Positions 26,550 through 58,700 are shown, counted from the first letter of the stretch. The stretch: DNA of 64,000 nucleotides from Candidatus Poribacteria bacterium (GCA_963422705.1 OY730443.1:3169394-3233393), one strand, 5' to 3'. Notes: generated by a model from the sequence alone, not told the origin. A program made the numbers and translations.

Positions 26550-26996
26550 GGAGAATTGTAGTAGATGCTGAAAATAAGGGGACATTAGCGTATCAATTTT
26601 GTCGACAGGACGAGCGTCGCCGCAAGGTAACGTATCTGCCTCATCACTTGTTAGGGGGTGATGTACCATGAAAACTTATTCGTATCAATGTAGAGATTCA
26701 TCCAATTGTATTCGGCTTGGCAACTTTCTTGACGATATGTGGCAAGTGGATATGTATTTCCATAAGCGGCAGCGTCAACAGGATAAAGACGGATTATCAT
26801 GCGATGCGCGCACACGTGATTAAGTTGAAGCGGTGCCCCCCGGCATTGGAATGTTTTGCCGAGTCAAGTCCTCTAAGAGGAAATCAAACGTATTTACGCG
26901 GGACATCCGCGTTTTTTCAATAAATCTGGCGGTAACCCCATATCAAACCGCAGTTGCTATGAAACCGAAGCTGACCTTTTAGGGTGTGGCTATCAC
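26550..26996 (+). mobile_element. MITE/PATE-like internal-deletion derivative of the IS200/IS605-like element at 43.7 kb
   Basis: Left part matches that element's left end (LE) and tnpB 5' end (cgtatcaa, then ATGAAAACTTAT...cttgacgatatgtggcaagtg). The junction is at a shared aaacc, followed by a right end (RE) matching accgcagttgctatgaaaccgaagc...ctatcac. Flanked on the left by TTGAC. Confidence 0.6.
26669..26821 (+). pseudogene. tnpB: tnpB 5' fragment (51 codons) inside the MITE-like element
   Basis: MKTYSYQ...LGNFLDDMWQVDMYFHKRQRQQ parallels the N-terminus of TnpB at 43857 (MKTYKYP...IGNQLDDMWQVHVYFHKWQRH). Confidence 0.6.
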
Positions 26997-28638: not shown

Positions 28639-31467
28639 ATGCGTTTTATTGCTGTTATCGTTTTCTTAATTGGGGTCGCGATTGCGATTGGGTACTTCGC
28701 ATATCAAAATCTGGGCGGCTTTGCGTCCACCAGCCTGGTTCGTTGGCTCATCGTTATTTTTGCGGTATTGTTGGGGAGCCTCATTGCGTTCGCAGCTTCA
28801 GTCATCCGATATCGGATTCCGAAAGCGGATGTTGCGCTTATTAGGACGGGGGGCTCCCGGGAAAAAATTCGTGTCACCGGCGGACTCTGGGTAAACACGA
28901 TTATTCATGAAATCAAAGAAGTTTCTCTCAATACCATGCGCATTGAGGTGGTTCGCGAGGGGCCAGAAGCGCTAATCACCTACGACTTCAACCGTGGAGA
29001 TGTTGAAGTCGTTTTTTACCTTAAGGTCGAGCCTGTAGAGGACGGTATCTTACGCGCAGCACAAGCACTCGGCGATAAATCTATGACGCCAGAAACCGTC
29101 CGTGAACTGATAGAACCTAAGCTTGAGGGGGCACTACGCAGTGTTGCCGCCGAAAGTGACATACAAGAGCTCTTGCAGAAACGACAAGAATTCGCTGATA
29201 AAGTACAAGCCACATGTGGCGAAGACCTGGAAGCACAAAATGGGTTGACACTTGAAACTGTCTCCATTATCCGCGTCGATCAGACACCCGTTGAAACATT
29301 GGATGCCGATAACCGTTTTGACGCCGTCGGTATCCGGGAAATTACTGAAATTACAGCCGAGCAGGAACGCGAAAAAACACGCATTGTTCAAGAGAAAGAT
29401 GTAGCAATCGCTCAAATTGAGATGGATGCACGCGTCCGGAAGCTTGAAATCGAACAGGAACAGTCCTGGGCAGAGTCAGATCAGCAGAAGAATATCTCTA
29501 TTTATGCAGCTGAACGGGAAGCCGAGACACTCAAATTTCAGTTTGAGATGGAGCAAGGCGTCCAAGAACGTGAATATGAGATGAAGCAAGAGGTTGAACG
29601 CGCACGCATCACACAGGAACAAGTCGTCCAAGAACGCGAAATTGAGATGAACCGGGATGTTGAAGTCGCCCGCGTCCAACAAGAACAGATTGTCGCTGAA
29701 CGCGAAATTGAGAAAAACCTTATTGTTGAAACGCAACAGATTGAACAATCCAAAGTTGTTCAACTTGCCGAAATTGAGCAGCATCTTATCGTGCAACTGC
29801 AGAAAATTGAGCAGGAACAGAGCATCGCTGTTCGTGATATAGAGAAGGAGTTATTCGTAGAGAAGGCGCGTATTGCGCAAGAAGAGGGTGTGATGCTGCG
29901 TGATATTGAGCGTGATTTACTTGTTCAGACGGAGCGTTTTAGTCAAGAGCAACAGGTTCAGCAGCGTGAGATAGAAAAGAATCTGGTTGTGGAGACAGCC
30001 CAAATCGAGCAGCTTCGGCAAGTAGAACTAGCCGAGATTGCGAAAATGCTAACGGTAGAGATAACGCGCATTGCGCAGCAACAGCAGGTGGAGACGCGCG
30101 ATATAGAGAAGGAGTTATTCGTAGAGAAGGCGCGTATTGCGCAAGAAGAGGGTGTGATGCTGCGTGATATTGAGCGTGATTTACTTGTTCAGACGGAGCG
30201 TTTTAGTCAAGAGCAACAGGTTCAGCAGCGTGAGATAGAAAAGAATCTTGTCGTGGAGACAGCCCAAATCGAGCAGCTTCGGCAAGTGGAACTGGCCGAG
30301 ATTGCGAAAATGCTAACGGTAGAGATAACGCGCATTGCGCAGCAACAGCAGGTGGAGACGCGCGATATAGAGAAGGAGTTATTCGTAGAGAAGGCGCGTA
30401 TTGCGCAAGAAGAGGGTGTGATGCTGCGTGATATTGAGCGTGATTTACTTGTTCAGACGGAGCGCTTTAGTCAAGAGCAACAGGTTCAGCAGCGTGAGAT
30501 AGAAAAGAATCTTGTCGTGGAGACAGCCCAAATCGAGCAGCTTCGGCAAGTGGAACTGGCCGAGATTGCGAAAATGCTAACGGTAGAGATAACGCGCATT
30601 GCGCAGCAACAGCAGGTGGAGACGCGCGATATAGAGAAGGAGTTATTCGTAGAGAAGGCGCGTATTGCGCAAGAAGAGGGTGTGATGCTGCGTGATATTG
30701 AGCGTGATTTACTTGTTCAGACAGAGCGTTTTAGTCAAGAGCAACAGGTTCAGCAGCGTGAGATAGAAAAGAATCTGGTTGTGGAGACAGCCCAAATCGA
30801 GCAGCTTCGGCAAGTGGAACTAGCCGAGATTGCGAAAATGCTAACAGTAGAGCAATCCCGGATTGGCCAGGAATTGCGCGTGGTGTTGACTGATGAGGAT
30901 AGAAAAATCGATGTTGCCAATAAACAGCAGTTGACAGCCCTGGCCGAAAAAGAGCAGCTGGTTGCAGAGGCTGAACGGATGGGTGCCGAAGTAGAGGTTA
31001 CCGCGACTGAACAGCGTGGAGAGGCAGAATGGCAGCGTGAAGTGGCAATCATCGGAGCGGAAGCGCAGGCACAACCAATTGAACGTCTCGCCGACGCGGT
31101 GCTTGCTGAAGCACGCGCCAAAGCACAGGGAGATATGGCAGATTACGAGGCACGAAACGTTGCTGAGCAGCGGGTTCTCGTACAGGAAGCCATCTTAGAA
31201 CTCATTGACGAACTCCCTGATATTTTTGAAGAAATGATGAAACCTGTTGAGAAAATCGACAGCATTAAGATTTTGGATATGGGGAACAATGATGGGCAAC
31301 GCGGTATCACACGTAGCAATATGGGACGTCTCGCAAATGCCTTGCTTGATACCGGCGCAATTTCACCGATGTTAAAGGAATTGTTCAACTTCGCCGATGT
31401 AGATGCGCAACAAATTACGGATAAGATTGCTGAATATCTCGCCGACTTGGTGAATCGCCCCAGTTAA
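28639..31467 (+). CDS. Flotillin/SPFH (band 7, YqiK-like) membrane protein with an expanded coiled-coil repeat region
   Basis: N-terminal TM helix plus SPFH-like segment (LIRTGGSREKIRVTGGLWVNTIIHEIKEVSLNTMRIEV). Long E/Q/R-rich heptad region containing an 88-aa unit repeated about 4 times. Confidence 0.65.
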   Translation: MRFIAVIVFLIGVAIAIGYFAYQNLGGFASTSLVRWLIVIFAVLLGSLIAFAASVIRYRIPKADVALIRTGGSREKIRVTGGLWVNTIIHEIKEVSLNTMRIEVVREGPEALITYDFNRGDVEVVFYLKVEPVEDGILRAAQALGDKSMTPETVRELIEPKLEGALRSVAAESDIQELLQKRQEFADKVQATCGEDLEAQNGLTLETVSIIRVDQTPVETLDADNRFDAVGIREITEITAEQEREKTRIVQEKDVAIAQIEMDARVRKLEIEQEQSWAESDQQKNISIYAAEREAETLKFQFEMEQGVQEREYEMKQEVERARITQEQVVQEREIEMNRDVEVARVQQEQIVAEREIEKNLIVETQQIEQSKVVQLAEIEQHLIVQLQKIEQEQSIAVRDIEKELFVEKARIAQEEGVMLRDIERDLLVQTERFSQEQQVQQREIEKNLVVETAQIEQLRQVELAEIAKMLTVEITRIAQQQQVETRDIEKELFVEKARIAQEEGVMLRDIERDLLVQTERFSQEQQVQQREIEKNLVVETAQIEQLRQVELAEIAKMLTVEITRIAQQQQVETRDIEKELFVEKARIAQEEGVMLRDIERDLLVQTERFSQEQQVQQREIEKNLVVETAQIEQLRQVELAEIAKMLTVEITRIAQQQQVETRDIEKELFVEKARIAQEEGVMLRDIERDLLVQTERFSQEQQVQQREIEKNLVVETAQIEQLRQVELAEIAKMLTVEQSRIGQELRVVLTDEDRKIDVANKQQLTALAEKEQLVAEAERMGAEVEVTATEQRGEAEWQREVAIIGAEAQAQPIERLADAVLAEARAKAQGDMADYEARNVAEQRVLVQEAILELIDELPDIFEEMMKPVEKIDSIKILDMGNNDGQRGITRSNMGRLANALLDTGAISPMLKELFNFADVDAQQITDKIAEYLADLVNRPS
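29836..30855 (+). repeat. 264-bp near-perfect tandem repeat x about 3.9 inside the flotillin-like gene
   Basis: Unit starts at 29836, 30100, 30364 and 30628 (gatatagagaaggagttattcgtagagaaggcgcg...), with only a few SNPs between copies. Confidence 0.9.
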
Positions 31468-43613: not shown

Positions 43614-44182
43614 TTCTATGAATGGTTCCTTTATTTTATCTGTTTTCAGGGTTTACGGGCATTCGTTTGTTTTGCCCAATCCTTTAGGTTTGGGATATAA
43701 GCCCGCTAAGGGCCTAATCCTTGTGAAATAAATTTGACTTTTCTGCTAAAAATGTGATATCATATTCGTATCAAGTTGGCAGACATGAACAGCGTTACCA
43801 CTTGGTAGCGTGTCTGCCTACCCACTAGGGGTTTAAGACTTGAAACTTGATAGTCCATGAAAACCTATAAATACCCGCTTGGGAAACAATCTAATACGAT
43901 GCGCATTGGAAATCAGCTTGACGATATGTGGCAGGTGCATGTGTATTTCCATAAGTGGCAGCGTCACCGGTATAAATATGGTTTGCCGTATGCCAACTAC
44001 GCTGCAATGTGTCAACATGCATGCATATTGAAACGAACCACACATCCACATTGGAAGTTGTTGCCAAGCCAAGCCATCCAAGCAGAGCTAGAACGAATTG
44101 ATAATGCGTATCAAAGGTTCTTTAATAAACTGGGAGGTAACCCCCATATCAAACCTCGCCATAAGTTTAAGTCTATCACGCT

Positions 44183-44288
44183 GAAACAAACTGGATTTAA
44201 ACTGACTGATAACCGTATTACACTCACTTTTCGTCGAAACAAACTGGATTTAAACTGACTGATAACCGTATTACACTCACTTTTCGTC
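44183..44288 (+). repeat. 53-bp perfect tandem duplication (gaaacaaactggatttaaactgactgataaccgtattacactcacttttcgtc x2) that frameshifts tnpB
   Basis: Copy 1 is 44183..44235 and copy 2 is 44236..44288. 53 is not a multiple of 3, and a TAA lies just after the junction. Confidence 0.9.
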
Positions 44289-44668
44289 AGTGGGATAAAG
44301 GGAAGTGGCGATTTGATAAAGTGCCAACTACGTTTCATAAGCACCGCCAGTGGCATGGGACTCTCCGTCGTATCACAATCAAATGTGATAATTGTGGCGA
44401 CTATTGGCTTTACATCATAACGGATGACACCGATTTTAAACCGCTGCCGACAACAGGTAAAAGCGTTGGGGCAGACTTCGGAATGAAAGACGCGTACTTG
44501 ACACTTAGCACGGGTGAGAAGATACAACACCCCGAACCTTTGAAACAGTCCTTGAACAAACTTCGGACTCTCAATAAAGCGTTTTCTCGTAAAGTTAAAG
44601 GTTCTGGCAACTGGTGGCGATGTGTCAGGCAACTTGCACGTCTGTATCGGAAAATTAGCAACCACCGC

Positions 44669-44691
44669 GAAACGGCGGTTTCGCCCTACGC
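44669..44691 (+). repeat. 23-nt hairpin mini-repeat gaaacggcggtttcgccctacgc, copy 1, in-frame inside tnpB-1 (encodes ..ETAVSPYA..)
   Basis: Identical 23-mer found four times in the window. Stem gaaac/gtttc with loop ggcgg. Absent from the aligned position of the second TnpB. Confidence 0.85.
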
Positions 44692-44949
44692 TAAAGATTT
44701 TCACTGGCAACTGGCAAGTGAACTTTGTAAAAAGTTTTCTTGCTTTGTCCTTGAGACGTTGAACCTTGACGGCATGAAACGACTGTGGGGGCGTAAAGTC
44801 TCGGACCTCGCCTTCTACCAGTTCGTTGAGATATTGGAATATAAGTGCAGTAAACATAAACGTATGAGGAAACAAATCGGACAATGGACGCCGACAACGA
44901 AGCCGTGTTCAGATTGTGGGTATCACAACAAAGAACTAAGACTTTCAGA

Positions 44950-45171
44950 TAGGCAGTGGACATGCCCCGACTGTGGTCCACACCACGACAGAGACATCAA
45001 CGCTGCGATAAACATTTTGCGGGCAGGGATAGCCGTCACTTGACGATATGCCTGTAGAAAACTACAGGGAAATGCCCGTAGGTGGAGCGACAGTAAGACG
45101 GTGGACACTTTGAGAAAACCGCAGTTGCTATGAAACCGAAGCCCCACGCTTTAGCGTGTGGGTGCTATCAC
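44950..45171 (+). ncRNA. Candidate TnpB-associated reRNA/omegaRNA scaffold (3' end of tnpB plus RE)
   Basis: By analogy with IS200/IS605 TnpB systems, the guide RNA derives from the tnpB 3' end through the RE boundary (…ctatcac at 45171). The 5' boundary is a guess. Confidence 0.3.
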
Positions 45172-45600
45172 GAAAGTATAATATAGAATGTCCGATGTGT
45201 CCAGAATGATTTTGTCCGAATGAGTTATCGTAGGTTTTAAAAGGAGTGATACCGTTCCCAATGAGAACCTTGCAGGCGCGCTTGCCAAGTGCGCAGTTTG
45301 AGACAGCTCCGGTGAAGATAAATGTCGCGGTATTTTTCTACTACACTGTAATTCTCGACTAGAAAGTCAATAACCCCCGACTTCAGTCGGGGGCTTGTGC
45401 GAAGCGTATACCAAACGTTCACTCCACAAGTTAAACGATTTTCTACAGTAAAATATCGCTTTATCTGGGCGTGGTGGCCTAAACAATGTTTCGGATACTC
45501 CCCTCGTCCGATTCACGCTACGATATTGCGCTCTGGAAGGGGCAATATACAACCCGTAAGGGAGATTACAAACGATGTTTGTTCCGGTGACGAGTCAAAC
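45172..45600 (+). ncRNA. Candidate omegaRNA for the downstream IsrB-like gene (about 400-nt ORF-poor structured region)
   Basis: Lies immediately 5' of, and overlapping, the IsrB-like start, as in IscB/IsrB loci. Contains a strong hairpin cccccgac-ttca-gtcggggg (45374..45393). No convincing protein ORF. Confidence 0.35.
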
Positions 45601-46375
45601 AGGTGCCTTGTTGATGCCGACGCGTGCGAACAAGGCGGGCATGCTGATTAAGAAAGGTTTCGCCACGCCCTATTGGTCAAATGGGATATTCTGTATCCGG
45701 CTTAACTATGCTACCGAAGCCGCATACACACAAGATATCGTCGTCGGTGTAGAACCCGGTAGCAAGAAAGAAGGCTTTACCGTCACATCAGCATCTCATA
45801 CCTATTTGAATGTTCAGGCAGACGCTCACGTCGGTGTCGGTAAGAAAGTGGCGAAGCGTCGAGAGTTGCGTAGAAGTCGGCGTTCACGAAAGTGTCCGAA
45901 TCGCAAGAATAGAACCAACCGTCTTGCGAATAGAGCGCGTATCCCCGCAGGCACACGTGCGAGATGGGACTGGAAACTTCGGATATTGGATTGGTTGTCC
46001 AAACTGTATCCGGTTAGCCACGTTTGTGTTGAGGATATTAAGGCACGGACAATAGAACGTGCGAAGAAGTGGAACACCTCCTTTAGTCCGCTTCAAGTTG
46101 GTAAACAGTGGTTCTATCGCGAAATCCGTAAACGGTGGGAACTGTTCACTTTACAAGGGTGGGAGACGAAAGAAATACGAGAGAGGTTAGGTCTCAAGAA
46201 GTCTTCAAAGAAACTATCGGAACCCTTTGATGCGCATTGCGTAGATTCTTGGTGTCTGGCACATCATACCGTAGGCGGTTTGGATATACCCGATAACACG
46301 TCGCTTCCGAAACGGCGGTTTCGCCCTACGCTTGTGTATCTCACCGATACCGATAAAACGCAGAGAGTTGCATAG
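45575..46375 (+). CDS. Compact IsrB-like (HNH-less IscB) OMEGA nuclease, 266 aa
   Basis: N-terminal PLMP-like domain (GALLMPTRANKAGMLIKKGFATPYW). RuvC-I IVVGVEPGSKKEGFTV. Arg-rich bridge helix KRRELRRSRRSRKCPNRKNRTNR. RuvC-II VSHVCVEDIKA. RuvC-III FDAHCVDSWCLAHH. No CxxC/HNH insert between RuvC-II and RuvC-III. Confidence 0.6.
   Translation: MFVPVTSQTGALLMPTRANKAGMLIKKGFATPYWSNGIFCIRLNYATEAAYTQDIVVGVEPGSKKEGFTVTSASHTYLNVQADAHVGVGKKVAKRRELRRSRRSRKCPNRKNRTNRLANRARIPAGTRARWDWKLRILDWLSKLYPVSHVCVEDIKARTIERAKKWNTSFSPLQVGKQWFYREIRKRWELFTLQGWETKEIRERLGLKKSSKKLSEPFDAHCVDSWCLAHHTVGGLDIPDNTSLPKRRFRPTLVYLTDTDKTQRVA
46309..46331 (+). repeat. Same 23-nt hairpin mini-repeat, copy 2, in-frame near the 3' end of the IsrB-like gene (encodes ..KRRFRPTL..)
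   Basis: Exact 23-mer match. Confidence 0.85.
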
Positions 46376-46485
46376 GCAACAGGAAGCGAAAGGCGGTAAA
46401 CGCACACGGGTGGGTGGCACTGTATTAGGGAAAGGCTTAGTCAAAAATACATTGCTTAATCATGTCAAATACGGTTTAACCCGCC

Positions 46486-46508
46486 GAAACGGCGGTTTCG
46501 CCCTACGC
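46486..46508 (+). repeat. Same 23-nt hairpin mini-repeat, copy 3, intergenic downstream of the IsrB-like gene
   Basis: Exact 23-mer match. Confidence 0.85.
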
Positions 46509-51276: not shown

Positions 51277-52416
51277 ATGGGCACTATGACAGCTTACGAA
51301 CGAAACGCGAACGGACAAACTACCCTTGTAAAGCCCCACGTGAAAAAAGTTCTTGTCGCAATGAGTGGGGGCGTAGATAGTTCTGTCACCGCCGCTATGA
51401 TGGTGGCAGCAGGGCACGATGTTATCGGCATCACCATGCGCCTCGGTACACCCGATACAATTGAGGTGGAACCAGAACGCCCTAATTGCTGCTCGCTTGA
51501 AGGAATTGAGGACGCTCGCCGCGTCGCGACGCAATTGGGGATTCCCTTCTACGGCGTTAACTACGAGGATGTTTTTCGTGAACAGATTATTGACTACTTC
51601 GTCCAAGAGTATCTCGCCGCGCGGACTCCGAGTCCCTGCATGGTGTGTAATCGCAAACTGAAGTTCGGTAAACTCCTCAATCTGGCGGATTCATTAGCAT
51701 GTGACTTTATCGCCACTGGGCACTATGCGCGGATTGAACGCCACCCGGAAACCGGGCATGCTATGTTGCGAAAAGCCCGTGACGGGAGTAAGGACCAGTC
51801 CTATTTCCTCGCTGCACTCACGCAGGAACAACTCTCGCGTGCATTAATGCCTCTCGGCGAATACACGAAAAACGAAGTCCGCGCACTCGCCCAAAAGTAT
51901 CAATTGCGAACCGCTGATAAAATTGAGAGTCAAGAACTCTGCTTCGTTGCCGATAACAACTATCGACGTTTCCTACAAGATAGAGTGTCTGATAAAATTG
52001 AGGGTGGGGATATTGTGGATAAGGACGGTAACGTCCTTGGAAAGCATCAAGGGGTACCGTTTTATACCGTTGGGCAACGGCGTGGCTTGGGCATCGCCGC
52101 CGCAAAACCGCTCTACGTTACGCAACTCGACGCTACAGAGAATCTGCTCATCGTCGGTGAATCAGATGAGCTCTTGGAGGATACGATGCACGTTGAACGC
52201 CTCAATTTAATCTCTATGGAGAAATTGATGGTGCCTATTCGGGCGAACGTCAAAATCCGTTCGCGTGATGACGGGGGGCTCGCGACGATACACCCGCTCA
52301 GCGAGACGGAAGCCGAGGTAAAGTTTGACGCGCCTCGCCGAGCAATTACACCCGGGCAAGCAACCGTGTTTTACAATGGCGAATATGTCATCGGTGGCGG
52401 CTGGATTAAAGCGTAA
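51277..52416 (+). CDS. mnmA: tRNA-specific 2-thiouridylase MnmA
   Basis: PP-loop VLVAMSGGVDSSV. Catalytic Cys context (CCSLEG…, ELCFV). Confidence 0.9.
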   Translation: MGTMTAYERNANGQTTLVKPHVKKVLVAMSGGVDSSVTAAMMVAAGHDVIGITMRLGTPDTIEVEPERPNCCSLEGIEDARRVATQLGIPFYGVNYEDVFREQIIDYFVQEYLAARTPSPCMVCNRKLKFGKLLNLADSLACDFIATGHYARIERHPETGHAMLRKARDGSKDQSYFLAALTQEQLSRALMPLGEYTKNEVRALAQKYQLRTADKIESQELCFVADNNYRRFLQDRVSDKIEGGDIVDKDGNVLGKHQGVPFYTVGQRRGLGIAAAKPLYVTQLDATENLLIVGESDELLEDTMHVERLNLISMEKLMVPIRANVKIRSRDDGGLATIHPLSETEAEVKFDAPRRAITPGQATVFYNGEYVIGGGWIKA

Positions 52417-52535
52417 GGACAAAGCTGCAGAAATCCCGGAGCCCTTTACCCCAGAAAGCTTTAAAGCTCCCCCGTCAAATCCCCATGCTTTAGCTTTCGG
52501 GATGTAGACGGCGAAGTTCCTGATAGAACATATAG

Positions 52536-52564
52536 TTGACAATCTAATCATAATGTGGTATAAT
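52536..52564 (+). promoter_or_regulatory. Consensus sigma70 promoter for tnpA formed at the IS left junction
   Basis: TTGACA (52536..52541), exactly 17 nt, then TATAAT (52559..52564). The TTGAC is the candidate target pentamer that also flanks the other IS LE. Confidence 0.55.
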
Positions 52565-52672
52565 ATACGATACACGATAATAGAAAGGTAAGATATTATA
52601 CCTCTCAAAATCGCGAATAAGAAACGTAATGACAAAACAAGCAACAAGACACTCTCTAGTTGTCAATATCAC

Positions 52673-53041
52673 GTGATTTGGTGTACCAAGTATCGTCGTA
52701 AGGTTTTGGATACACAGATACAAGGACGCCTGAAACACCTCATACGAGAAAAACAGGACGCGTCTGAATATCAAATCTGTGAGGGTGAAACTCACCCTGA
52801 ACCTGTCCATTTGCTAATAGAAATACCGCCAATACATGCTATTGATAAAATCGTTGGCAAAATCAAAGGTTATACCGCGGCAAGCATGTTGCTTGCTACC
52901 TTTAAAGTTTTGCGAGAAGAATATCCGTGCCTGAAAAGTCGTTTGCCGTCTTTATGGACACGTTCAAAGTTTGTCAGTTCCTGTGGTGGCGTAACGCTCC
53001 AAGTCATCAAGGACTATATTGAAGCTCAAAGTGGACAATGA
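52673..53041 (+). CDS. tnpA: IS200/IS605 HUH (Y1) transposase TnpA
   Basis: HVIWCTKYRRKVL…HLLIEIPP… motif pattern of IS200 TnpA. Homology continues upstream to about 52625 (NDKTSNKTLSSCQYHV) with no in-frame ATG, and the ATG at 52629 is in the +1 frame. Confidence 0.8.
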   Translation: MIWCTKYRRKVLDTQIQGRLKHLIREKQDASEYQICEGETHPEPVHLLIEIPPIHAIDKIVGKIKGYTAASMLLATFKVLREEYPCLKSRLPSLWTRSKFVSSCGGVTLQVIKDYIEAQSGQ

Positions 53042-54268
53042 GAAAAGCCAGCAAGTTCAAACTTCAAAATCAATCGAACATCGTCAAAATCGGCAATATG
53101 CTTGACGATATGTGGCAGATACACCAGCAATTCATGCTTTTACAGCGTAGGTTTTAAGGTGATGATAAGTTGCATGAGAAATCTCCGACGAGATTATTAA
53201 GGGATTGTCAAAAACAGCAGAAGCTCAACCGACTAAGCACGACGAAAAATCGCATGTTCGGCTTTCAACCTGCCCGCATCTCGCATCAACAAACATATTG
53301 TGAAACTCAAGAAGCGCACAAAACCACATTGGGCAGACTTGCCGAGTCAAGTTGTGCAAGACGTTGTTCTGCGATATGGCAAATCACAAGACGCATTTTT
53401 CCAAAACATAGAAGAACGCAAAGCCGGTAAGACAAGACGTAAAGTCGGTAAACCGAAAATCAAACCGAGACACAAATACACCTCTATGACTTTCACACAA
53501 AGCGTAGGGCGAAACCGCCGTTTCGCGGGCTACACACTTGAAAAAAATCGTATCAAAATCAACGGTATAGATACGTGGTTCTCCTTCCACAAACACCGTG
53601 AAATCAACGGGACAATCAAGACGATAACACTCAAACGGGACAGGTGCGGTGATTATTGGATATGCTTTTCGTGCGCGAATGTTGACGATTCCGAACCGAA
53701 ACTCAAGACGGGTAAGAGCGCAGGGTTTGATTACGGAAACAAAACATTCCTTACAAGCGACGAAGGCAACAAGATAGAATCTCCGCAGTTTTTCAAACAC
53801 TCCCTGAAAACGTTGCGATGCCTGAGCAAAGCCCTGAGTCGTAAAGTCAAAGGTTCTAACAACTATTATCGTGCGTGTCGTGCTTTGGCGAGGCACCACA
53901 GAAAAGTCGCGCGCCAAAGAGAAGAGTGGCAGTGGAAACTTGCCACCGAACTTTGCACGGCGTTTGATATACTCTGTTTTGAAACACTGAATCTTGACGG
54001 TATGAAACGCCTTTGGGGACGCAAAGTCTCTGAACACGCAGAGGATCAGTTCATACAGATATTGGAACAGAAGTGTGCAAAGCATGGTAAAAAACTTGAG
54101 CGAATCAGTCAGTGGACACCTACAACAAAACCATGCAGTGATTGCGGATACCATAATCAAGAACTCTCTCTTTCTGATAGACAGTGGACTTGTCCCGACT
54201 GTGGTTCTCATCACGATAGAGACGTCAACGCTGCTATCAATATCAAACGGGCAGGCTTGGCTGCCTAA
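53038..54268 (+). pseudogene. tnpB: TnpB gene interrupted near codon 40 by a foreign about 130-nt segment (N-terminal fragment 53038..53160, remainder 53300..54268)
   Basis: N-terminal fragment MRKASKFKLQNQSNIVKIGNMLDDMWQIHQQ… then a stop. The remainder resumes at the equivalent of about residue 65 (KLKKRTKPHW…) and runs to CSDCGYHNQELSLSDRQWTCPDCGSHHDRDVNAAINI. Confidence 0.75.
53502..53524 (-). repeat. Same 23-nt hairpin mini-repeat, copy 4 (reverse orientation), in-frame inside tnpB-2 (encodes ..GRNRRFAG..)
   Basis: Exact reverse-complement 23-mer match. Absent from the aligned position of TnpB-1. Confidence 0.85.
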
Positions 54269-54488
54269 AGTGGAGCGACAATGAGACGGGGTTTCTCTCA
54301 GAGAAAAGCGCCGTCGCTACGAAGCACAAGCCCCTACCTTCAGGGAGTGGGTACCTATGCTGCTATCAATATCAAACGGGCAGGCTTGGCTGCCTAAAGT
54401 GGAGCGACAATGAGACGGGGTTTCTCTCAGAGAAAAGCGCCGTCGCTACGAAGCACAAGCCCCTACCTTCAGGGAGTGGGTACCTATG
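54231..54488 (+). repeat. 129-bp perfect tandem duplication spanning the last 12 codons of tnpB-2 plus the RE
   Basis: Copy 1 is 54231..54359 and copy 2 is 54360..54488. Each begins ctgctatcaatatcaaacgggcaggcttggctgcctaaagtggagcgacaatgagacgg… and ends …gggtacctatg. Confidence 0.9.
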
Positions 54489-54726
54489 ACAGCGACGTTT
54501 AAAGCCTATTTTGTGAAATTCGGCCTCGCCTATCGCATTCGGATGGATACGATGATTGCCCTGTTTATTTTTTTATGGCAATTTACCGATTGATAGCGGC
54601 GCAAGCGCGACGGCTCTGGCTGCACTGCGCGACGGGTGTCTTAAAGTTCGACGAACGGGATTTGGCCAGTACCTCATTTATTCTCCGGTAGTAAATCAGT
54701 CATGTTTAAAATCGACTACCCTCTCT

Positions 54727-55659
54727 ATGAAACCGAAACTCATCTGCCTCCTTGGCCCAACAGCCGTCGGAAAAACGGAAATAGCCATTGAATTGGCTAA
54801 TCACCTCAATGCCGAGATTGTGTCTGTCGATTCTCGGCAAATCTATCGGCACCTAGACATCGGCACAGCGAAACCGACACACGAGCAACAGAACGCAGTC
54901 CCACACCACCTCATCGATTGTGTCGATATCGCGGAGCCGTTTTCCGCCGCTGACTATCAGAGGTTGGCTGATACAGCAATTGTGGATATTCAAAAGAGAG
55001 GTAAGATATCTCTGCTGGTGGGCGGTGCGGGACTCTATTTTCGTGCGATTGTGGATGGGTTGTTTCAAGGACCGGGGGCAGATACCGCAATTCGGGAACG
55101 ACTTCAACGCGAAGCGGCGCATGCCGGGCCCGAATTGCTCCATAACCGGCTCTGCAGTTGTGACGCGGATGCTGCAGCACGTATTCACCCGAACAACGTA
55201 GTGCGAGTCATCCGGGCTCTAGAAATCTACGAACTCACCGGTACTCCGATTTCCCAACTGCAGCAACAGTGGAATCATCAGCAAATTGACAAACCGCCGC
55301 GATACCCGTTTACTGCTTTTTGCCTCAGCATGTCACGAGCTTACCTCTACCAGCGCATTGAACAGCGCGTTGATTTGATGATGACGAACGGACTCATCGA
55401 AGAAGTTAAGGGGGTACTGACGCGCGGATATCCGAGGGATTCTATCGCGCTGCAGAGTTTCGGATACAGAGAACTGATTGCCTATCTTGAACAGGAATGC
55501 CCGTTAAACGAAGCGATTGTAAAGGTGAAGCAGAACACTCGACGCTTTGCGAAACGCCAATTGACATGGTTCCGCAAAGATTCGCGCCTCGAATGGGTAG
55601 AGCGTGGAACGATTACAGAGGTTGTCGCTCACCTATTAGCGCGGGCTGAGCATATCTAA
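54727..55659 (+). CDS. miaA: tRNA dimethylallyltransferase MiaA
   Basis: P-loop LLGPTAVGKTEIAIELA and VSVDSRQIYRHLDIGTAKP. The ORF is open from 54556, but the Met at 54727 (MKPKLICLLGP) fits MiaA N-termini. Confidence 0.85.
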   Translation: MKPKLICLLGPTAVGKTEIAIELANHLNAEIVSVDSRQIYRHLDIGTAKPTHEQQNAVPHHLIDCVDIAEPFSAADYQRLADTAIVDIQKRGKISLLVGGAGLYFRAIVDGLFQGPGADTAIRERLQREAAHAGPELLHNRLCSCDADAAARIHPNNVVRVIRALEIYELTGTPISQLQQQWNHQQIDKPPRYPFTAFCLSMSRAYLYQRIEQRVDLMMTNGLIEEVKGVLTRGYPRDSIALQSFGYRELIAYLEQECPLNEAIVKVKQNTRRFAKRQLTWFRKDSRLEWVERGTITEVVAHLLARAEHI

Positions 55660-55760: not shown

Positions 55761-58700
55761 TCACGCTTCCGTCAACTCAGACGGTAACCCCTCAATAATT
55801 TCAGTCGACGCAACGCTCACATAAACCAGGCGTTTTATCACGGTAATAAGTTCATCCGGTTCTGCAAACCACTCATTTGCGTCATTGATGATGCCACTCT
55901 CCTTGTCCCGCGTCACCTTGTACCTATCAATTAACCACTCCAGGGGCGTCCGTCCGTTAACCACATACCGATGCGCCTCCGAAGGGATACCCGATACGCG
56001 CGTCTCCTCATTGATGATAAGCGTCTCTTTGCTCACCTTATCCGAAAAACGCATCGACTTCGAACTCAACTGAAAATTCCCCGTCGGGGCATCCACGGAA
56101 AGGGGGTACGCCTCACACGTCTCATAATTCAGGTGTAGGCGCGCTAGCGCCGCACCCGCATCCGAAAACGCGCTGAAATCAGGCGCAAACGGAATGCGCG
56201 GCAACATCTTGGTGACATCATTCGCGAACTTTTCACGATACACCGACGAATGCAATACGCCGTAAACATAATCGAAAATCGCATCCTTCGTGATGCCGTC
56301 ATCCCGGTAATGCGCACGGAACGCCGCCAGCGCCGTATCCGATATGTTGTCAAGACGCCGGCCACTGATTGGGTATTCCCACCGCGGAAAGCATTGGCAC
56401 CCATTGTTTAAACCGCATTCCGGCATCGTATCCGTGATAAGCGCGGAAAACGGCTTTTTGGAACCGATACCCGGCACACATATCACCCGGTTTTCACTCG
56501 ACAAGGGAGGAAACATCCTGTCCATCCAGTGTTTACTCTGTGCGAGCGTATAATCCGCGTAATAATTCGTGGGCACAAACGGGCGATAGCTCACCTTTCG
56601 AAGGTATTCTGCTTTAAAGTCAACCCTTTTCTTTTGTTCGAGTCTCTTTTTCAGCGCTGCTCCCCACTTAATATTCTGTCTTGCGTTGTGCCGGTGTACC
56701 ACCTCATCCACAGTGAGTTCAGGATTTGCCTCAAGTTCAGCAATTGCTGCGCGGTACTCTTTCGTCATGCGGCGGGCGTTGTCGAGGCATGCGTGTCGTG
56801 AGAAGTTGTGGAGGTAGGCGTCCCTACCCGTTGCATACCCGCGTGAATATAACTTAAATATCGCATCGTCCGCCTTGCCCACCTTTGTCTCCTTGGTGCC
56901 CATCGGGTAAAACCGTGCAAACGCATCGCTCCGCTGGTTAACCCAATCGTGATGAGCATTCGGCGTAATTGTCTGCCAATCGCGAACCCCTTTGATGGAG
57001 CCAGCATCCCGCAACGCCGTTAGCTTCTCCTCGCGCGTGAGGTAATCCCCGATATCGCGGTATCGGATTTCACACCTTTTCGTCGTTTTCAGTGCGCTAA
57101 ACTTCTGCTGTTTTTGGCAATCCGTTGATAATCTCGTCGGAGATGCTTTCGTCGTGCTTAGTCGGTTAAGCTTCTGCTGTTTTTGGCAATCCGTTGATAA
57201 TCTCGTCGGAGATGCTTTCGTCGTGCTTAGTCGGTTAAGCTTCTGCTGTTTTTGGCAATCCGTTGATAATCTCGTCGGAGATGCTTTCGTCGTGCTTAGT
57301 CGGTTAAGCTTCTGCTGTTTTTGGCAATCCGTTGATAATCTCGTCGGAGATTTCTCATGTTTTTGTCGTGCTAAGCGATGGGGGTTTTTTACCAAGATGG
57401 TGATGGCAACCGGGGCGCGGGAACCGCTGCCGAAAGCATTTCCACCTTCCGCACGTCGCCGTTCTCCAGAGGTCTCGCATCCCCTCGAAGGTGTAGCACG
57501 TAGATAGAACTGAATTCGGAGGCGAGACATGCCCGGAGCCCCGCATCGGCGTTCCCATCAACCCACGAACCGTTGGTAACGAAGGCGATAACCCCCTCTT
57601 CGCCAATTCTGTCGCTTGCCCACCGGAGTGCCAGTTTGTAGGTATCGTAGAGACTATTCTTATTGGTTACTGTCGATGCCGCGGCATAGGTGTCCCGGAT
57701 GCGTTTTTCAAGCGCCGGATAGTGCACGTTAGGGTTGTCATTGGCAGCACTCTTCTGCCCCACGGACCACGGTGGGTTACCGACGATGACACGGATACGC
57801 CGTTCCTGTTGATTCTCGGTGCGTTCGTTGTTATCCATCAGCCAGAGCAGGGGTTCTGTCTCTCTGTCCGGAATTGGTGTTGTGTTGAGCGTGAAAGTAT
57901 CGGTGAGGGCGATGCCGTTGAACGGTTGTTTCTCAAGTCCCGTCTGCGCACCCATGGACGCAGCCCCTTCAGGGCGCCGGCTGCGGAAGGCTTCGGCGAT
58001 ATTGATGGCGGCGATGTAATAAGCGAGGAGTACGATTTCGTTGGCGTGTAGTTCCTCCCGATATTTCCGTTCCACGTCCGCGGGCGCGATGAGTTCAGAT
58101 TGCAGCAGGCGCGCCAGAAAGGTGCCAACGCCGGCGAACGGTTCTAGGACATGAACACCTTCATCGGAGAGGCTTCGTCCGAATTCATCGGTGAGCACGT
58201 CGTCGGCGCTTTTCAAAATGAAGTCGACGATGTCCACCGGCGTGTAGACGATACCGAGTCGTTCCGCCTCTTGTTTCAGCGCCGTGGCGAAAAATTTCTC
58301 GTAGAGTTCCAACAGCACGCGCTGTTTCCCCGCGCTGTTATCGATGCCGCGGGCGCGCATGCGGACGCTGTCGTAAAAGCCTTCCAAGTCCCGCGTCTCA
58401 TCTAAGAGTCCGAATTCGGCGAAATCGGCCCGGAGCGTGTCCAGCGCTATCGCCACCGGGTTGCTAGAGGCGAATACGTCATTCTCAAAGAGTGCGTCGA
58501 AAACGGGATTTGTGATGATATGCTGTGCCATCATATCGATGGCGTCGCCGCGAGTGATAGCGTCGTTTATCGCGCTTTTGAGTTCGGCATGGAATGCGTC
58601 AAACCATTCTTGCAGCGCCGTGTTTGCTGGATGTCGCAGTAATCCCTCAATGCGTGCGACGACGCGCAAGAAAATATCGGCGACGTCCTTCGCCCAGCTC

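Follow-up and report, generated by a model that had tools for sequence, protein, structure and literature searches.

An IS200/IS605 element between mnmA and miaA

The window analysed here, a stretch of 64,000 nucleotides, comes from the genome of a member of the Poribacteria, a sponge symbiont, which is represented by a single contig of 4,001,648 bp. Between the genes mnmA (51277–52416) and miaA (54727–55659) lies an insertion sequence (IS) of the IS200/IS605 family, spanning positions 52466–54490. Since the spacer between these two genes measures only 101 bp in the nearest available relative, the IS has entered an intergenic stretch that is normally short. The closest MiaA among 5.8 billion proteins is only 75% identical to that encoded here, so that there is no sister strain for comparison, and a search of metagenome contigs with the exact flanks as patterns found the same locus in no other assembly.

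Both genes of the element, which belongs to the tnpA- and tnpB-bearing IS605 group of this family, are recognisable. An open reading frame (ORF) at 52673–53041 scores 98.7 bits against the NCBIfam model NF033573 (cut-off 55), which describes the Y1 HUH transposase TnpA, and a remnant of 322 residues encoded at 53300–54268 scores 220.8 bits against NF040570 (cut-off 100), which describes the RNA-guided, RuvC-type TnpB. No record of this 322-residue reading frame was found. The element shares with IS200/IS605 members of the IS608 and ISDra2 type the combination of a Y1 HUH TnpA and a RuvC-type TnpB whose genes overlap (ATGA), the hairpins at both ends and the insertion 3′ of a TTAAC-like pentanucleotide, and it has, as a putative counterpart of their reRNAs, a conserved structured region that runs across the tnpB 3′ end and the right end (RE) and is followed by variable flanking sequence. 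It differs from them in being pseudogenised and in carrying the scaffold/RE module twice, the latter being seen in none of 91 related loci. The features of the locus, all on the + strand, are as follows; L024 and L055 denote two intact relatives of the element.

52461–52465 (+): TTAAA in the left flank, target motif and TAM-like sequence, from the alignment of about 45 related copies
52466–52535 (+): left end (LE), subterminal imperfect hairpin CCCCATGC TTTA GCTTTCGGG, conserved in related Poribacteria copies
52536–52564 (+): predicted sigma-70-type consensus promoter 5′ of tnpA (TTGACA, 17-nt spacer, TG-TATAAT)
52598–53041 (+): tnpA pseudogene (Y1 HUH transposase, NF033573), compared with the intact genes of L024 and L055
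53038–54268 (+): tnpB pseudogene (NF040570), aligned to the intact 370-residue TnpB genes of L024 and L055
54230–54358 (+): tandem copy 1, containing the last 39 nt of tnpB, the guide-RNA scaffold and the RE hairpin (54330–54352)
54359–54487 (+): tandem copy 2, identical to copy 1, with the RE hairpin at 54459–54481, running into the authentic RE terminus
54488–54490 (+): authentic RE terminus GAC; close relatives all end in CCTATGAC and then diverge
54491–54506 (+): host flank, the would-be 16-nt guide of the downstream scaffold copy, placed by its position after the end of the RE

Delimitation of the element ends

Alignment of some 45–60 copies shows imperfect hairpins lying subterminally at the LE and the RE, with homology stopping sharply at both ends. 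On the left, one of the pentanucleotides TTAAC, TTAGC, TTGAC, TTATC or TTAAA stands directly 5′ of the conserved LE in all of the approximately 45 copies compared, and this pentanucleotide is evidently the insertion target, doubling as a putative TAM. The conserved LE itself starts with A or G followed by CTC and then by CCCCGTCAAA or a close variant such as TTCCGTCAAA. On the right, the RE sequences of about 45 close copies all end in ...GGGTACCTATGAC and are fully divergent beyond this point, while in sister subfamilies the RE ending is CCTTGAC or TATCAC. From this alignment, the RE of the element ends at position 54490 and the guide-encoding flank begins at 54491.

Two k=31 Logan contigs assembled from run ERR11641160 carry mnmA and miaA, the products of which are 100% identical to those encoded in the window. 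The first of these contigs (L001) stops at position 52495, its final 30-mer being 52466–52495, and the second (L002) begins at 54462, its first 30-mer ending at 54491. Breaks of this kind are what repeated element ends give in a de Bruijn graph, and they lend independent support to both ends of the element. The promoter predicted 5′ of tnpA matches the consensus hexamers at 12 of 12 positions, has an extended −10 element and is conserved in L055 and L024; it could still transcribe the element.

A perfect tandem duplication at the 3′ end of the element

Tandem Repeats Finder identifies a single array at 54230–54488, with a period of 129, 2.0 copies, 100% matches and no indels. A pattern search of the 64-kb window recovered exactly two copies of the 129-bp unit, at 54230–54358 and 54359–54487, with no mismatches, and no further copy when up to three mismatches were allowed; the same search of a shuffled sequence, which served as control, gave no matches. 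An independent scan for exact runs returned a match of 130 bases at period 129. The extra base, G54488, is the first base of the unit repeated, and this single nucleotide is the only microhomology at the junction. The perfect 129-bp tandem duplication reported in the first-pass annotation is real, and the coordinates given for it there, 54231–54488, differ from ours only by a one-base rotation of the array.

The unit starts 39 nt 5′ of the tnpB stop (TAA, 54266–54268) and extends through the RE hairpin. With the RE terminus at 54490, the duplication ends 2–3 nt inside the RE, and the upstream copy is without the terminal AC: it ends ...CCTAT, followed by G and CT, giving CCTATG-CT against the CCTATG-AC of the family. 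The unit had been described as the tnpB 3′ end plus the right end of the element. The assignment to the tnpB 3′ end and to the RE with its hairpin stands, but the true RE terminus is not reached. That the upstream copy runs on into tnpB 3′ sequence instead of host DNA can be read directly from the sequence, and the earlier structural reading of the duplicated module is right. Judged by position, it is only the downstream copy that retains the authentic RE terminus together with a would-be guide derived from the host.

Decay of the element

Lesions in the element were read against L024, which encodes a TnpA of 139 residues and a TnpB of 370 residues, and L055. The start codon of tnpA is lost through a change of ATG to ATA (52598–52600), proline stands in place of the first HUH histidine to give PVH (52802–52804), and the gene carries a 24-bp palindromic insertion at 52879–52902. 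In tnpB, an insertion of 93 bp at about 53156–53248 brings an in-frame stop and is followed directly by a frameshift of 1 nt, and a 24-bp palindromic, REP-like insertion is found at 53501–53524. The host IS copy is evidently a fossil in which tnpA and tnpB are both disrupted. The scaffold too is affected, three of its 30 consensus pairs being broken in the window sequence only.

The element is at least 12% different from its nearest database relatives, whereas the two copies of the unit differ at no position. From this comparison, we infer that the duplication is recent and much later than the decay.

The putative guide-RNA scaffold and miniature derivatives of the family

An alignment of 37 sequences yielded a consensus scaffold structure of 30 base pairs, seven of which show compensatory changes. 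Its parts are a hairpin just past the tnpB stop, nested long-range stems around an invariant GTGGAGCGACA...GTCGC, and the RE hairpin; the latter is backed by compensatory changes and followed by a single-stranded tail of 9 nt. In the RE alignment of close copies, the flank is variable directly past GAC. When sequences are folded singly, L024 reproduces the family structure and the unit from the window departs from it. A scan of positions 52300–54800 against Rfam at E ≤ 1 returned only two chance, snoRNA-like matches, and the scaffold is thus covered by no curated Rfam family. In ISDra2, the reRNA is about 150 nt long, of which about 16 nt are guide, and the guide derives from the flank beyond the RE (PMC8612924). 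The 129-bp unit is near to this reRNA in size.

Poribacteria genomes also contain many loci in which an LE and a scaffold/RE are present without tnpB (L023, L037, L057, L025, L040, L070, L019, L029, L035 and L046), the scaffold and RE being kept downstream of unrelated sequence. To judge from their sequences, these derivatives are presumably non-autonomous elements with guides of their own. Homology in these tnpB-less loci begins about 12 nt inside the duplicated unit. Since they retain the same segment, the 129-bp unit corresponds to the whole of the conserved scaffold/RE module except for the final two nucleotides, that is, to the module that PATE- or MITE-like derivatives of IS200/IS605 elements retain. 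Such derivatives have an LE, however, and the array in the window has none between its copies, which makes it a head-to-tail internal repeat.

The duplication is specific to this copy

Related loci were collected with a 20-nt scaffold motif, GTGGAGCGACARTRAGACGG, as the query, which gave 70 loci from species-representative genomes and 21 from metagenome contigs. The genome loci are nearly all from Poribacteria MAGs, and one chromosome of 5.4 Mb alone has about 27 copies. The motif occurs twice in none of the 91 loci. When the whole element was compared with the related loci by BLAST, every relative proved to be colinear with it and to carry the module once, the second copy in the window re-aligning to the same segment of the subject. 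The question raised by the first-pass annotation, whether other copies of the IS carry the doubled structure, is thereby answered: none of the 91 loci does, the duplication is copy-specific, and the tandem arrangement is not intrinsic to the IS. Further copies exist in the source genome itself, as two TnpB clusters (P0121 and P0122), 92% identical, come from the same 4.0-Mb contig. A full-text search of the literature found no paper on tandem duplication of a TnpB guide-RNA/RE module and nothing on TnpB in Poribacteria.

The element in the window adds a degenerate member to a known IS family and bears what looks like an ordinary, copy-specific mutational scar. In this Poribacteria IS family, a tandem scaffold is not built in, nor is it conserved; the duplication amounts to a further lesion in an IS200/IS605 copy in decay and, as it stands, matters little. 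More useful are the by-products of the analysis, namely the exact ends, the TAM-like motif and the covariation-supported scaffold of an abundant Poribacteria TnpB family, together with its miniatures.

Origin of the duplication

We consider it probable that the array arose as a recent, copy-specific tandem duplication, through illegitimate recombination or template switching, in an already dead IS200/IS605 copy. The IS would have inserted 3′ of TTAAA in the short mnmA–miaA spacer, and would then have lost the function of tnpA and tnpB and gathered small insertions. Most recently, the segment that begins 39 nt 5′ of the tnpB stop and ends 2–3 nt short of the RE terminus would have been copied head to tail, with 1 nt of homology at the junction. 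Replication slippage, or unequal sister exchange or template switching, is the mutational mechanism that we infer for this step, and the duplication would have persisted because the DNA was, presumably, neutral.

This explanation is favoured by the occurrence of similar perfect duplications elsewhere in the window and at other Poribacteria loci. A second perfect two-copy duplication, of 53 bp and with no homology at its junction, is found at 44183–44288, in another dead tnpB 10 kb away. It frameshifts that tnpB copy (43857–45043), the scaffold/RE of which ends in ...GGGTGCTATCAC at about 45171. The window also holds a perfect array of 3.6 copies of a 69-bp repeat, and perfect duplications of 51 bp and 79 bp are present at other Poribacteria loci, outside IS copies. 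Duplications of this kind would be eliminated from functional genes but could remain in dead elements. The array resembles the spontaneous short-homology duplications of bacteria in being a perfect head-to-tail pair with 0–1 nt of homology at the junction, situated in unconstrained DNA. It differs from them in that one boundary adjoins a transposase cleavage site, perhaps by coincidence. By a rough, post hoc estimate, the chance that a randomly placed duplication has its right boundary no more than 3 nt from the RE terminus is about 1%. This proximity hints at a link to the element end, either through a nick made by TnpA or through the boundary between repeat and unique sequence in the assembly graph. 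It also counts against a plain duplication that both of the perfect two-copy duplications in the window sit in IS copies, an observation that an assembly error could accommodate.

Two other origins were considered and rejected. Slippage on CTATCA and CTATGA, a pair of imperfect direct repeats, does not fit, as their spacing before the duplication would have been 121 nt rather than 129 nt, and insertion of a miniature LE+RE element is contradicted by the lack of an LE between the copies.

The first of the two links to the element end would be an aborted TnpA reaction, an origin that we regard as unlikely. TnpA acting in trans would nick the top strand at the RE, after ...TGAC (54490); the 3′ end, trimmed by 2–3 nt, would re-anneal on the sister or template strand by means of the 1 nt of homology and re-prime synthesis 129 nt upstream. 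The right boundary of the duplication indeed lies 2–3 nt from the RE terminus as set by the approximately 45 aligned copies, and the foot of the hairpin is 9 nt from the end, a distance that is about 10 nt for the cleavage site of IS608 (PMC3201880). The same genome has related, possibly active copies of the element, and the breaks in the Logan contigs indicate that the sample contains more copies with identical end sequences. Nevertheless, an RE-anchored duplication is found in none of the 91 related loci, and the trimming step is ad hoc. Moreover, the 53-bp duplication in the second tnpB lies far from any element end, from which it follows that this genome makes such duplications without TnpA. 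Were the array a footprint of TnpA after all, it would mean that Y1 transposases occasionally make end-anchored duplications of their own guide-RNA module, possibly a route to multi-scaffold or miniature derivatives.

A route catalysed by TnpA throughout can be rejected. A precise mini-circle, formed between a pseudo-left TCAAC at 54225–54229 and the RE and put back at that site, predicts a unit of 132 bp and the junction TATGAC/GCTGC, whereas the observed junction is TATG/CTGC and the unit, at 129 bp, is 3 nt shorter. Y1 transposase chemistry is precise, and a shortfall of 3 nt at the junction is incompatible with it.

The second link would be an artefact of assembly, in which a node of 129–130 bp, situated where repeated IS sequence gives way to the unique flank, has been traversed twice and the organism has a single copy. 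This too seems to us improbable. The copies are perfectly identical, as such an error would have them, and the right boundary of the array adjoins the boundary between the repeated IS and its unique flank. The IS is, in addition, multi-copy in the sample, the k=31 Logan contigs of ERR11641160 breaking exactly at both element ends. These contigs are uninformative on the k-mers of the junction itself because the unitig spanning the junction would be only about 60 nt long. The source, however, is a single contig of 4.0 Mb in which a 264-bp array of 3.9 copies (98% identity) and a perfect 69-bp array of 3.6 copies have been resolved, and lengths of 129 and 53 bp are unlike the k-mer sizes in common use. 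The 53-bp case, furthermore, lies in the middle of a gene and not at a repeat boundary. Finally, no such duplication is present in some 60 copies of this family in other Poribacteria assemblies of a comparable, chromosome-level kind, which speaks against a systematic assembly error at IS ends.

Neutral duplication in a dead copy is thus the origin that we prefer. The array would be informative on how single-strand transposases remodel their own ends only if it were confirmed by reads and if end-anchored duplications were recurrent in the family.

Consequences for end recognition and guide RNA

In IS608, the four terminal nucleotides of the element make up the right cleavage site, which lies about 10 nt 3′ of the foot of the hairpin; recognition is by base pairing with a guide sequence, and mutation of the site abolishes robust complex formation (PMC3201880). 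The spacing from hairpin to terminus is 9 nt at the RE in the window, as against about 10 nt in IS608 (PMC3201880). At the position that matches the IS608 cleavage site CR, the upstream copy has TGCT where the family has TGAC. By this analogy the upstream copy is probably a poor right end, and a TnpA acting in trans would still have its functional terminus in the downstream copy.

In the normal register, the would-be guide of the upstream copy is GCTATCAATATCAAAC. Its only matches are at 54233 and 54362, preceded by ACGCT and ATGCT, respectively, as compared with TTAAC, TTAGC or TTAAA in the family. Cleavage by TnpB requires a TAM (PMC8612924), and self-targeting by the upstream guide is rejected because neither matching site has a TTAAC-like TAM. 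The proposal that the upstream copy might give rise to a self-targeting reRNA is accordingly not borne out, the guide matching nothing but the element and no site flanked by a TAM. The companion suggestions, altered recognition of the transposon end by TnpA and a decoy reRNA, find no support in a copy that falls 2–3 nt short of the RE terminus within an element whose genes and scaffold are damaged; the promoter makes a non-functional or decoy RNA conceivable, but nothing points to a decoy RNA from the upstream copy. As far as can be judged from sequence, the scaffold/RE in this copy is cut short and has neither a TAM-flanked target nor a demonstrated role.

More generally, the truncated RE, the lack of a TAM-flanked target, the disruption of tnpA and tnpB and the three broken scaffold pairs leave a functional reading of the array unsupported. 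A functional tandem module, in which both scaffolds are transcribed and loaded on TnpB made elsewhere so as to act as a decoy or regulator, or in which the use of ends by TnpA is altered, strikes us as very improbable: the unit does hold the whole scaffold retained by the tnpB-less miniatures, the consensus promoter is still directed into the element, and the 92%-identical tnpB relatives in the same genome make loading in trans conceivable, but the doubled arrangement is conserved in none of 91 relatives, the upstream copy is without the terminal AC and so incomplete as a scaffold, its extra guide has no TAM-flanked target, three consensus pairs are broken and the predicted fold is unlike the family structure, and the element's own genes are dead.

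Other repeats and mobile elements in the window

A palindrome of 24–28 bp with a GTAG head (AGCGTAGGGCGAAACCGCCGTTTCGCGG) is present in four copies in the window, where none is expected by chance:

53501–53524 (+): GTAG-headed palindrome
44661–44688 (−): GTAG-headed palindrome
46305–46326 (−): GTAG-headed palindrome
46482–46503 (−): GTAG-headed palindrome

Three of the four lie inside genes of mobile nucleases (two in tnpB and one in an IscB/IsrB-like ORF), and the fourth is situated just past that ORF, which places all four within or next to OMEGA-type genes; those in the two tnpB copies are in-frame insertions of 24 bp. The palindrome is absent from 72 loci of other Poribacteria. GTAG-tagged REP elements are known (PMC3733652), and the palindromes in the window resemble them. 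The insertion in tnpA at 52879–52902 is a different 24-bp palindrome (GGCAAGCATGTTGCTTGCTACCTT), which occurs once in the window and whose reverse complement reads as GTAG followed by a hairpin.

The 93-bp insertion in tnpB (53156–53248) has a core of 69 bp that is also found at 57102–57351, as a tandem array of 3.6 copies with 100% identity. This array lies within the 5′ part of an ORF of 589 residues at 55761–57530 (−) and encodes repeated ...SPTRLSTDCQKQQKLNRLSTTK... units. The same 93-bp insertion is present at the same position in P0121, another tnpB of this genome, which means either that the interrupted IS was copied or that the insertion is site-specific.

Two further remnants of mobile elements were noted. 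At 26668–26995 there is an internally deleted tnpB element, which passes directly from about 280 bp of 5′ tnpB sequence to the final 50 bp or so of a right end (...AACCGCAGTTGCTATGAAACCGAAG...GGCTATCAC). At 45575–46375, an ORF of 266 residues matches the N-terminal half of an IscB model (residues 5–156) with 81 bits, which is below the cut-off of 175 bits. It appears to be truncated or IsrB-like, and carries REP-like insertions. Finally, the 264-bp tandem repeat of 3.9 copies mentioned above (29836–30852, 98% identity) lies inside an ORF of 942 residues (28639–31467) that is highly repetitive and rich in glutamine and glutamate (Q/E-rich).
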